28,051 nt of DNA from Chlamydiota bacterium (GTDB lineage Bacteria; Chlamydiota; Chlamydiia; Chlamydiales; SM23-39). Location of the stretch: the NCBI GenBank assembly GCA_048498835.1, contig JBEHXF010000025.1:1-28051 (forward strand), in the 5' to 3' direction. The notes beneath the pieces are model-generated. The model did not search any database. It was not told the DNA's origin and saw nothing but the letters and a program-made list of their open reading frames with translations. Position numbers and translations under genes: made by a program. Shown here piece after piece: positions 16,809-19,166 of the stretch; position 1 is the stretch's first letter; each line of letters starts with the position of its first letter.

Positions 16809-17228
16809 CTAGCGATTGTAGTATAAATAATTGGCTGTGCTCAGGACCTTATAAACGGTTTCAAGCCCCGCCTTGAATCCCCACGGATGAAATTCTGCTA
16901 TGGTATCTTTAAGCTCGGATAGTGCATGAGGTGCAAACTTCACAAAATCGCCGGCTTGAATATCTCCCGGAGCTTCTCTCCATTCGATTTCATCAAAATG
17001 ATCGTTTTCTAATCGCGCTGGGATAGATTCACTGAAAACTGGTATCTGATCATCTGCTATTTCACACTTCGCATCGACAATTATCTGAATAGCTCTCTCT
17101 TTCATCGGTTTGGGATCAGAAGAGACACACTCAACGCGTTTGAGTGAGAGATTGCTAAGAGATATATTTTTTTTGGAAATTTGTTCTTCAATTCTTACTA
17201 AATAAGATTGTGGTTTTACAGGATGCAT
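16809..17228 (-). CDS. Tandem paralogue family member 5 (last in transcription order)
   Basis: Shares IEE..SKK...LKRV and WREAPGDIQAGDFVKF...FHPWGFKAGLETVYKV with its neighbours. ATG at 17228 preferred over TTG at 17240. Confidence 0.85.
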   Translation of the reverse strand: MHPVKPQSYLVRIEEQISKKNISLSNLSLKRVECVSSDPKPMKERAIQIIVDAKCEIADDQIPVFSESIPARLENDHFDEIEWREAPGDIQAGDFVKFAPHALSELKDTIAEFHPWGFKAGLETVYKVLSTANYLYYNR

Positions 17229-17258
17229 TTTCTTTTCCAATAAAGAGCTTATTGTTTT

Positions 17259-17678
17259 TTAATTTTGAGAGGGAGGGAGGGTTATTTGAATGACTTTGTA
17301 AGCAGTTTGAATGGCAGCTTGATAACCAGCTGGATGAAATTTTTTAATAGTCTCGGTAAGGAGTTGTTTAGGGGACTCTCCAAAAATTACATAATCGCCA
17401 ACTTTAATGTCGCCAGGAGCTTCTCTCCATTTTGTTGTATCTGGTTGCGGTGTGAGTGTCGGTGCTCCTAGATCAACAAAATCACCATCGTCTGAATCTG
17501 ATACGAAATCATAATCTAGTTCACCCATAGTTTGAATCTTCCTCTCTGACAAAGGTTTTGGTGAAGAGGGGAGGAGTTCGACCCGTTTTACCCAAGAATT
17601 TACCAGAGGCATATTTTTTTTGTTTTCTAAGTTTTCGAAAGTAACAAAAAAGTAGTTGTTATTGATTGAGGAAGCCAT
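17259..17678 (-). CDS. Tandem paralogue family member 4
   Basis: VTFEN..NKK...WVKRV and WREAPGDIKVGDYVIF...FHPAGYQAAIQTAYKV. Confidence 0.88.
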   Translation of the reverse strand: MASSINNNYFFVTFENLENKKNMPLVNSWVKRVELLPSSPKPLSERKIQTMGELDYDFVSDSDDGDFVDLGAPTLTPQPDTTKWREAPGDIKVGDYVIFGESPKQLLTETIKKFHPAGYQAAIQTAYKVIQITLPPSQN

Positions 17679-17693
17679 AATAGTTGCAAAACT

Positions 17694-18194
17694 CTAGTTT
17701 TTGTGGATTGTTAATTGAATGACCTTATAAGCGGTTTCGAGGCCTGCCTCAAGTCCTTTGGGGTGTCGCCGTGCGATGAACTTTTTACATTCTTTCACAG
17801 AAGATTGTGGAAAGACGACAAAATCGCCGACTTTAATTTCACCGTCTACTGTTTTCCAGGATAATTCAGGAATGGCTCGTGCGGGCTTCTCTTGAATGGG
17901 TTCAAGAACAGGCGACGAAGGTGGATTGATTGGTAAAATATCGTAATCATTATCGTCTTCGAGAACTTCCCACTCAGAATCGTCTTTGGTCAACTTTAAG
18001 ACTTCAGCAACTCTGTCTGTCAAAGGTCTTGATGATGTTTTATGAGTTGATGCAGCATTGCTTTGGATGAGGGATTCAGATGTAGAAGATGCGAGTTCAA
18101 CGCGTTGAAGCCACAGAGTATCGAATAAATCTGTTTTTTTTGAGATAGGTTCTTCGATTGTCGCTGTTGCGCTTCTTCGAACTGGATGAGCCAT
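17694..18194 (-). CDS. Tandem paralogue family member 3
   Basis: TIEEPISKK...WLQRV and WKTVDGEIKVGDFVVF...HPKGLEAGLETAYKV. AGGAAA RBS. Confidence 0.88.
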   Translation of the reverse strand: MAHPVRRSATATIEEPISKKTDLFDTLWLQRVELASSTSESLIQSNAASTHKTSSRPLTDRVAEVLKLTKDDSEWEVLEDDNDYDILPINPPSSPVLEPIQEKPARAIPELSWKTVDGEIKVGDFVVFPQSSVKECKKFIARRHPKGLEAGLETAYKVIQLTIHKN

Positions 18195-18302
18195 ATTATT
18201 TTCCTAAATACAAAGAGGATGAATAAAATTTGTTTAAAACCTGACGTTTCTCTTTAATAAGGAGAAATAGAATAAACCGGTCTTAGAAAAAAATCCAGTC
18301 TC

Positions 18303-18611
18303 TTAGAAACCAAAAAGGGGGAGGGTCATATTAACAACTTTGTAAACTGTCTTGACACCGACCTCAAACCCTTCAGGGTGGAACTTATCAATGGTTTGTT
18401 TAAGCCAAGCTGACTTTTCGGGTCGAAACATCACCTCATGGCCGACTGAAAAATCCCCCGGAACGATCGTATATTCTACTCGATTATGGTGTGCTTTCTC
18501 TTCTGATGTGTGAACCCGCCTGAGCCAAGTATTGCCCAGCGATAATTCTTTTTTAGTAGTGGGCTCTTGGATTGTAACGACGTAGTGCCATCTTGGGATA
18601 AAACAGACCAT
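18303..18611 (-). CDS. Tandem paralogue family member 2 (minimal, almost no insert)
   Basis: VTIQEPTTKK...WLRRV and YTIVPGDFSVGHEVMF...FHPEGFEVGVKTVYKV. AGGAAA RBS. Confidence 0.85.
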   Translation of the reverse strand: MVCFIPRWHYVVTIQEPTTKKELSLGNTWLRRVHTSEEKAHHNRVEYTIVPGDFSVGHEVMFRPEKSAWLKQTIDKFHPEGFEVGVKTVYKVVNMTLPLFGF

Positions 18612-18722
18612 ATTTCGTTTCCTAAAGTTGTCATTTTTTTTAAATCTACGAAAAAATAAACCAGTTTTAGAGAAAAAATCAAAGTGGTAGTAAAAAGGTG
18701 GTGACTTCCTAGGTTTTCTAAG

Positions 18723-19166
18723 CTAATCAGGAAAAGCCACTTCAGTCACTTTATAGGCGGTCTTTAGTACCTCGTCATATGTTTGTTGAGTATACTGTTC
18801 GATAAGAATTTTAATTGAAGATGACTGATCTGTGAACATCACATAATCTCCGGCTTTAATGTCATCCGTAGCAACTTTCTCCTGAGTGTTATTTTCAGAT
18901 TTTGTTAGTTCTGAAGAATGCTTATCAGCGATAGCTGGATTTGGATTTTTTGTTTCTGGAGAAATAATCTTGACAGTTTGGATCACACAGAAATCATCTT
19001 CTTTATTGTCATCTAAGACAATTTGAGAAGATATGTCTCCATTTAATGTCGTAATTTGAAAAGGGACAACGCGTTTTAGCCAATAGCTGTTAATTGTTAC
19101 TTTCTTTTCGTCTTTGTGTTCAAATGTTATGTTTGGATAAATTTTTTGACCAATTGGAGAAGCCAT
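18723..19166 (-). CDS. Tandem paralogue family member 1 (most divergent)
   Basis: ITFEHKDEKK...WLKRV and DDIKAGDYVMF...LKTAYKV. AGGAAA RBS. Confidence 0.85.
   Translation of the reverse strand: MASPIGQKIYPNITFEHKDEKKVTINSYWLKRVVPFQITTLNGDISSQIVLDDNKEDDFCVIQTVKIISPETKNPNPAIADKHSSELTKSENNTQEKVATDDIKAGDYVMFTDQSSSIKILIEQYTQQTYDEVLKTAYKVTEVAFPD

Follow-up and report, generated by a model that had tools for sequence, protein, structure and literature searches.

The window analysed here comprises positions 1 to 28,051 of contig JBEHXF010000025.1 of a bacterium of the phylum Chlamydiota (assembly GCA_048498835.1). It carries on its minus strand, at positions 16809-19166, a tandem array of five paralogous open reading frames (ORFs) for small orphan proteins, which we call P1 to P5. 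Judged from their sequences, these proteins form a new family, in which a conserved core is split by an inserted acidic loop. The inserts of four members (P1, P2, P3 and P5) contain motifs of an aromatic residue, two variable residues and an aliphatic residue after acidic residues, similar to the LC3-interacting region or ATG8-interacting motif (LIR/AIM) of eukaryotes. The family is probably host-directed. Among known motif classes LIR/AIM fits best, and we tentatively read the array as a family of ATG8-binding mimics, with ATG8 as a possible best match among known receptors for the motif. This LIR reading is only narrowly ahead of the rival explanations discussed below, each of which has a similar likelihood. 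It is supported by the display of the motifs on a predicted disordered loop and by the retention of a motif block among old paralogues, as expected of a working short linear motif. The five genes are as follows.

16809 to 17228, minus strand: P1, 139 residues from an ATG at 17228 (ORF list, alignment and profile match at E 3.8e-58); N-terminal core segment 17133-17228, insert 16980-17132, C-terminal core segment 16812-16979
17259 to 17678, minus strand: P2, 139 residues, insert 17427-17579 (profile match at E 4.0e-61)
17694 to 18194, minus strand: P3, 166 residues, with the longest insert, 17856-18098 (ORF list, alignment and profile match)
18303 to 18611, minus strand: P4, 102 residues, essentially core only, with a 14-residue insert at 18471-18512 without a motif (ORF list, alignment and profile match)
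18723 to 19166, minus strand: P5, 147 residues, the most divergent copy, insert 18879-19067 (profile match at E 1.2e-46)

An upstream TTG at 17240 would extend P1 to 143 residues, while the database form has 139. All five proteins share an N-terminal segment with the consensus ..VTIEE..KK...L.N.WLKRVE and a C-terminal segment with the consensus W..APGDIKVGD.V.F......LK.TI..FHP.G..AGL.TAYKV, and the insert between them varies from 14 to 81 residues. The other paralogues are 24-38% identical to P1 in the alignment. The ratio of nonsynonymous to synonymous substitutions (dN/dS) in the ungapped core columns was 0.28-0.59 in the 8 of 10 pairs for which it was computable, and synonymous sites were saturated. 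GGAAA-type ribosome-binding sites are located 5-8 nt 5' of four of the five starts, and the start of P2 is only 15 nt past the stop of P3. The conserved segments, the core dN/dS and the ribosome-binding sites indicate that the five ORFs are real genes, and selection acts on their core. In addition, a 39-nt repeat of 77% identity is common to the 5' leaders and first codons of P3 (18180-18218) and P5 (19152-19190) and includes the ribosome-binding site, which suggests that translation-start regions or promoters were duplicated within the array.

The original prediction had listed five LIR-like motifs in the array, and each of them was recovered on the minus strand of the window sequence at exactly the position given there. 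A sixth, YDFV of P2, was absent from that list and is located 11 residues upstream of FVDL. The six motifs are the following.

16986 to 16997, minus strand: FDEI of P1, context RLENDH-FDEI-EW, at the edge of the folded C-terminal core; fails xLIR and the two hfAIM patterns
17469 to 17480, minus strand: FVDL of P2 (motif B), context DSDDGD-FVDL; fits xLIR (GDFVDL) and an hfAIM pattern
17502 to 17513, minus strand: YDFV of P2 (motif A), context GELD-YDFV-SDSDD; fits xLIR (LDYDFV) and an hfAIM pattern
17934 to 17945, minus strand: YDIL of P3 (motif B), context LEDDND-YDIL-P, in a loop of predicted local confidence (pLDDT) below 50; fits an hfAIM pattern and fails xLIR (Asn at -2)
17961 to 17972, minus strand: WEVL of P3 (motif A), context TKDDSE-WEVL-EDD, in the same loop of pLDDT below 50; fits xLIR (SEWEVL) and an hfAIM pattern
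18981 to 18992, minus strand: FCVI of P5 (motif B), context DNKEDD-FCVI; fits an hfAIM pattern and fails xLIR (Cys at +1)

All six instances conform to the core [W/F/Y]-x-x-[L/I/V], one each in P1 and P5 and two each in P2 and P3. Positions -4 to -1 hold three Asp or Glu residues in FVDL, WEVL, YDIL and FCVI and two in YDFV and FDEI, the latter with His at -1. In the alignment, motifs A and B of P2 and P3 fall at the same positions as their counterparts in P5; from one aromatic position to the next the distance is 11, 9 and 11 residues in P2, P3 and P5, respectively, and the motif A position of P5 reads QIVL, i.e., its aromatic residue is gone. FDEI of P1 is found at another alignment position. 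Because of this equivalence, the motifs of P2, P3 and P5 are best described as one retained ancestral block and not as independent recurrences, so that the alignment points to a single inherited block plus a weak extra in P1. The block keeps its position in the three proteins while the rest of the insert diverges. The inserts also share a second conserved island, given here with its coordinates.

17541 to 17564, minus strand: SPKPLSER of P2, with the counterpart DPKPMKER of P1 at 17094-17117 and a similar SRPLTDR in P3 (alignment)

This island ([SD]PKP[LM]xER in P1 and P2, SRPLTDR in P3) is absent from P4 and P5, and a low-confidence helix in the structural models (residues 46-56 of P1 and 59-68 of P3) starts at its last residues and runs downstream. 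The description of the inserts as largely unalignable is thus correct in part, since the motif block of P2, P3 and P5 and the second island of P1 to P3 can be aligned.

To describe the enrichment we used a loose pattern ([WFY]xx[LIV] with at least two D/E among the four residues before it), a strict pattern (at least three D/E), the xLIR expression as printed in PMC5119064 and two hfAIM patterns from Table 2 of PMC8634866. The loose pattern gave six matches, whereas 20,000 shuffles of the inserts at constant composition gave 0.48 on average, and all four long inserts were matched in about 1 of 10,000 shuffles. The xLIR expression gave three matches, all of them in P2 or P3 (0.33 on average in the shuffles, P=0.0046), and the hfAIM patterns gave five, in P2, P3 and P5 (shuffle mean 0.17; 0 of 20,000 shuffles reached five). 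Five of the six motifs, all but FDEI of P1, fit at least one published LIR/AIM pattern. The motifs are therefore far commoner than composition alone would give by the loose, xLIR and hfAIM patterns alike. On the other hand, these shuffles treat the inserts as independent although the motifs of P2, P3 and P5 are homologous, and so their P-values overstate the case. Similarly, the earlier emphasis on recurrence in 4 of 4 long inserts stands for the loose pattern, but falls to 3 of 4 with hfAIM and 2 of 4 with xLIR, and the recurrence is that of one retained block. The acidic motif is also far commoner in the array than in the ORFs of the genome at large. In the whole genome, the strict pattern occurred 67 times in 586,081 residues of 1764 crude ORFs, with 4 of the 67 in the array, and by density of this pattern P3, P2 and P5 ranked first, fifth and sixth among the ORFs of the genome. 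The observation is statistically robust when it is taken as a single retained block with one weak addition.

It may be asked whether the motifs do anything at all. A young and fast-evolving orphan family could simply have inherited one acidic aromatic stretch whose resemblance to a LIR is coincidental, and the positional homology of P2, P3 and P5 fits this idea, since it reduces the four inserts to about one origin plus the weak FDEI of P1, which taken singly has a chance expectation of 15%. Moreover, the loop is dispensed with in P4, motif A is already without its aromatic residue in P5, there are no orthologues in which constraint over longer times could be seen, and the loose pattern was chosen after the motifs were known. 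However, the paralogues are old, with saturated synonymous sites and a core identity of 24-38%, and the block has kept its acidic-aromatic-x-x-aliphatic character in two registers while the surrounding loop residues diverged. The literature patterns, which were defined beforehand, were also enriched over the shuffles. We consider functionless motifs unlikely.

As a separate observation, an ankyrin-repeat protein of the same genome (G000:C17:1785-2546, plus strand, = L031:1785-2546; Ank 25.8 bits and Ank_2 28 bits, both above the cut-offs) has a C-terminal tail with two strict LIR-like motifs, EDKD-FREI and IEDD-YFLV, the latter six residues from the end. This protein is a second candidate for a motif-bearing, eukaryote-like protein in the genome.

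The display of the motifs was assessed in AlphaFold2 models of P1 and P3 built from a five-sequence alignment. In P1 (143-residue numbering), residues 8-41 and 83-140 form a core of pLDDT about 90, while the insert, residues 42-82, is below 50; FDEI lies at the insert boundary, where it abuts the first strand of the C-terminal core. In P3, the core has a pLDDT of 80-89, and residues 37-110, which hold both motifs, are below 50. The prediction had allowed that the motifs might be buried, but in both models they are located in low-confidence loops and are not buried. The modelled core of about 85-88 residues consists of an N-terminal segment of three strands and a C-terminal segment of a hairpin, two helices and a last strand. 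A charge-hydropathy analysis classed all five inserts as disordered and all five cores as folded. The isoelectric points (pI) are 9.25-9.6 for the cores of P1 to P4, 5.8 for that of P5 and 4.05-4.43 for the four long inserts. These predictions describe a split, basic and beta-rich core with an inserted disordered acidic loop, and the nearly loop-less P4 indicates that the core hardly needs a loop to exist. The proteins of the family have neither a signal peptide nor a membrane segment.

We could assign no known fold to the core, because all fold matches were below noise level. Foldseek gave no match at E<=0.001, and the best Z values of a wide VIA-align search, 4.9 and 5.5 (Ube2O region, Tudor domains and mini-inteins), were below the noise level of the tool itself. 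Against Tudor domains, 55-62 residues of the core were aligned at VIA Z 4.2-4.8 and a root-mean-square deviation of 2.8-5.2, again below the stated noise level. In the ESM Atlas, scores for P4 reached at most 0.83, and bacterial Tudor_3/Agenet clusters scored 0.77-0.78, which is sub-threshold.

Such a construction would also suit a role inside the bacterium, in which the ligand of the basic, beta-rich core is nucleic acid or another protein of the bacterium and the acidic loop serves for autoinhibition or partner binding, much as the C-terminus of the single-stranded DNA-binding protein SSB is an acidic-aromatic tip. In a variant of this idea, the array proteins are small acidic secretion chaperones for the 882-residue protein encoded directly downstream of the array. 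The opposite charges of the cores of P1 to P4 and the long inserts, the weak similarity, below threshold, between the core and Tudor/SH3-like barrels (VIA Z 4.2-4.8; Atlas 0.77-0.78) and the lack of a signal peptide or membrane segment agree with an intrabacterial role. The chaperone variant is favoured by the position of the array directly upstream of this large orphan gene, and by the size and charge of four of the five proteins (139-166 residues, pI 4.8-5.6), which are within the range of class I type III chaperones. However, the fold matches are all below the noise level of the tool (best Z 4.9 and 5.5), no secretion chaperone was among the Foldseek and VIA-align matches listed, the core of P5 is not basic (pI 5.8), and the acidity of the proteins comes from the disordered loop, whereas the core is basic in P1 to P4. 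Moreover, five diverging tandem copies that are absent from the five congeners searched would be unusual for a housekeeping regulator or chaperone, and in four metagenome contigs that extend 5 kb upstream of a homologue of the 882-residue protein, small genes of this kind are missing from its vicinity. An intrabacterial role seems to us rather doubtful.

If the loops do bind ATG8, the LIR reading would take the following form. The proteins would be delivered into the host cell, probably via a type III system, where the exposed motif would add itself as a short strand to host ATG8 and occupy the two hydrophobic pockets of its LIR docking site, a mode modelled on eukaryotic LIR/AIM motifs and on the tandem LIRs of Legionella RavZ. 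The core domain would supply a second binding function. Lacking a catalytic domain, the proteins would not be enzymes but adaptors or competitive blockers of ATG8. Secretion, ATG8 as the receptor and an effect on autophagy are all inferred here, and the mechanism is plausible but unproven. The further suggestion that different copies are tuned to different ATG8 paralogues or hosts drew no support from any of our results.

The same proteins could be secreted and host-directed with a motif that serves another host receptor, or that is a generic acidic-hydrophobic docking element. The host-directed context (nucleotide transporters, the type III gate component SctV, a variable genomic slot and low G+C content) and the display on a disordered loop apply equally to this possibility, only half of the motifs fit xLIR, and the second island (SPKPLSER-like) means that the loop carries more than one constrained element. 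In addition, chlamydial effectors such as IncE use other short linear motifs (PMC12108946). Yet no alternative receptor was indicated by any result. We compared the copies by eye with consensus patterns for FFAT, kinesin-light-chain W-acidic, SIM, YxxPhi, clathrin box, acidic dileucine and RVxF motifs; none of them fits all copies, and none of the first six matches the full set as well as the LIR pattern does. Another receptor is conceivable, though in our judgement not probable.

Several points weigh against ATG8 binding. The N-terminus enters the first beta strand after about 8-12 residues in the AlphaFold2 models of P1 and P3, which leaves little room for a free secretion signal, and P4 has practically no loop. 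Some other partner could be what the retained block serves, and an acidic loop on a basic core suits an autoinhibition model that needs no host. The loose pattern, as mentioned above, was defined with the motifs in hand, and xLIR fits only three of the six motifs and none in P1 or P5. Such patterns are common within the genome: 697 of its 1764 ORFs contain an xLIR match, and 224 of 1764 a match to the two hfAIM patterns. The strict pattern is also found in ORFs that we read by eye from their translations as GroES and an RluA-type pseudouridine synthase, where the matches presumably lie inside folded domains. The authors of PMC5119064 themselves regard xLIR as too unspecific for genome-wide scans. 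Because no orthologues were found in any collection searched, there is no independent evolutionary test, only conservation among paralogues. Furthermore, a bacterial LIR can mark a protein for the host instead of aiding the bacterium, as in Salmonella YhjJ (PMC6693458).

The closest functional comparison is with RavZ of Legionella pneumophila, a Dot/Icm enzyme of about 500 residues with a Ulp-like cysteine protease domain and a domain that binds phosphatidylinositol 3-phosphate (PI3P), which delipidates ATG8 and has two tandem N-terminal LIRs (residues 14-19 and 27-32) and one C-terminal LIR (PMC8634866). RavZ, a protein of an intracellular bacterium, engages host ATG8/LC3 through acidic LIRs of the [F]xx[L/I/V] type in flexible regions; the array proteins have LIR-like motifs in predicted disordered loops, and P2 and P3 also carry two motifs, 9-11 residues apart. 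By contrast, the array proteins are only 102-166 residues long, consist of one small core domain without a catalytic domain and show no homology to any known protein; their motifs are located in an internal loop and not at the termini, and their putative secretion would be of type III and not type IV. No RavZ-type Ulp-like protease or PI3P-binding domain was found in the five proteins by Pfam, NCBIfam and PDB sequence searches. With eukaryotic LIR/AIM motifs the array shares the aromatic-x-x-aliphatic core after acidic residues in a predicted disordered region, but FDEI of P1 fits neither xLIR nor the two hfAIM patterns, and YDIL and FCVI each miss xLIR by one position. SEWEVL and GDFVDL of the array are similar to DEWDII and DDFVEI, two viral motifs (PMC8634866). 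IncE of Chlamydia trachomatis has been proposed to act via short linear motifs in a short flexible segment (PMC12108946), but it is an inclusion-membrane protein with trafficking-protein motifs, whereas the array family has no membrane segment, an unrelated sequence and another motif type. Salmonella YhjJ, which is likewise a bacterial protein with a predicted LIR (ATWDEI), bound GST-LC3B in vitro (PMC6693458; PMC8634866). That interaction was, however, read as the host targeting a bacterial protein and not as manipulation (PMC6693458), and YhjJ is a conserved M16 protease and not an orphan loop-display protein.

No chlamydial LIR effector or ATG8 homologue was found in the literature at the level of titles and abstract openings, a scope that lies mostly outside subscription journals. 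Our genome search gave one ATG8-like protein. A divergent match to PF02991 (45 bits, above the cut-off) is encoded in a 2.9-Mb chlamydial genome of the same order (G266:C3, about 83.3-83.8 kb of a 182-kb contig; L020:1324-1809, plus strand), and it was the only match above the cut-off among the 400 Chlamydiota genomes searched. This protein lacks the canonical C-terminal Phe-Gly at the aligned position, and its gene adjoins one for a calcineurin-like (PPP-type) phosphoesterase. A 77-residue ORF just upstream (L020:1081-1314, plus strand) has a similar end, ...CLYITL, and no Pfam hit. One may speculate that an environmental chlamydia evolved, from nothing recognisable, tandem and catalytically inert LIR-display proteins that block or redirect host ATG8, and that ATG8, in view of the ATG8-like protein of the same order, is a recurrent target across environmental chlamydiae; we would hold this broader scenario to be doubtful.

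The orphan status of the family comes from searches of several kinds. Pfam, NCBIfam, PHROGs and PADLOC gave nothing credible for the five proteins (the best rows, at E 0.005-0.016, were single-member matches), and a PDB profile search by sequence gave no match at E up to 10. Among 836 candidates of a word-index search, only the window's own five proteins were relevant. A HMMER search of 1.84 billion representatives returned the five proteins and two repeat proteins, one with a YDG domain and one unnamed, which matched the GDxxxGDxVxF hairpin only. The family was found in none of the genomes of 60 relatives, among them five congeners whose genomes are 86-95% complete. Two of 399 other Chlamydiota genomes gave chance-level matches at E about 0.004, one of which (G097) was unrelated on inspection and the other (G403) was judged by its E-value only. 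Similarly, 585 pattern hits in metagenome contigs and 600 in genome contigs included no relative. The family thus appears to be confined to one genome.

The genomic context is that of a host-dependent bacterium. The genome of 1.97 Mb is 97% complete and contains four full genes for NTT nucleotide transporters (PF03219) plus fragments, a single gene for the FHIPEP/SctV type III export gate and, in the window, a weak Chlam_OMP match. This gene content indicates an obligate intracellular bacterium of some eukaryote, of the chlamydia type with a type III export gate, which makes a eukaryotic host with ATG8 plausible. The G+C content of the array is 0.35-0.45, against 0.46 for the genome. The array is flanked upstream by mfd (19227-22439) and alaS and downstream, on the same strand, by the orphan gene for the 882-residue protein.

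The slot between mfd and the conserved PNP-efp-epmA-nadE block (window 12225-19226) is variable within the genus. We compared it in three same-genus genomes with contigs reaching more than about 3 kb past mfd, and it was complete to the PNP/efp flank in two of them (G003 and G004); the contigs of G001 and G005 end too soon. Unrelated lineage-specific ORFs occupy the slot in all three comparable genomes. In G004 (L016) these are two TPR-like paralogues of 345 and 383 residues; in G003 (L017) they are four unrelated ORFs, including a weakly RING/U-box-like one of 165 residues and one with a bilobed hydrophobic segment like that of Inc proteins. In G002 (L018) a distant relative of the 882-residue protein directly follows mfd, and the contig ends about 3.3 kb further. 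Variable slots of this kind are the usual setting of chlamydial host-interaction genes. G003 also has a Fic-domain gene inserted between nadE and epmA. The downstream neighbour of the array lies in the same variable island.

14082 to 16730, minus strand: orphan gene for a protein of 882 residues, 78 nt past the stop of P1

This gene may be co-transcribed with the array. Its product has six homologues in metagenomes, all unnamed and 35-38% identical, and they share with it an invariant QGPVG[DN]CFAVAW stretch that includes an invariant Cys. The stretch resembles a QGxxGDC motif and the active sites of papain- or calpain-type enzymes, but the idea of a calpain/papain-like protein was dropped because Pfam and PDB profile searches gave it no support. 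The ESM Atlas had no usable match for the protein. The distant homologues have signal-peptide-like N-termini, and the copy of the window has none. No diverged copies of the array were found near the homologues in seven metagenome loci, where the best hmmsearch E-value was 1.5.

If the loops bind ATG8, an intracellular bacterium would have in them a compact means of engaging autophagy without an enzyme, a device that arose in a single lineage and was then amplified in tandem, and they would help to show how environmental chlamydiae that are not in culture cope with autophagy in protists. The array is also a clean case for asking if functional mimicry of a eukaryotic short linear motif can be predicted from an island of motifs that old paralogues have kept in a loop predicted to be disordered. 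Should the loops fail to bind ATG8, the array would still be a well-defined orphan family whose core is split by an acidic insert, in a slot downstream of mfd that is hypervariable in the genus, as well as a useful caution on LIR pattern matching.

Elsewhere in the window, an ORF of 283 residues at 1579-2430 on the minus strand has a weak Chlam_OMP match, and a coiled-coil ORF of 618 residues at 4580-6436, also on the minus strand, has weak SMC-like matches only.

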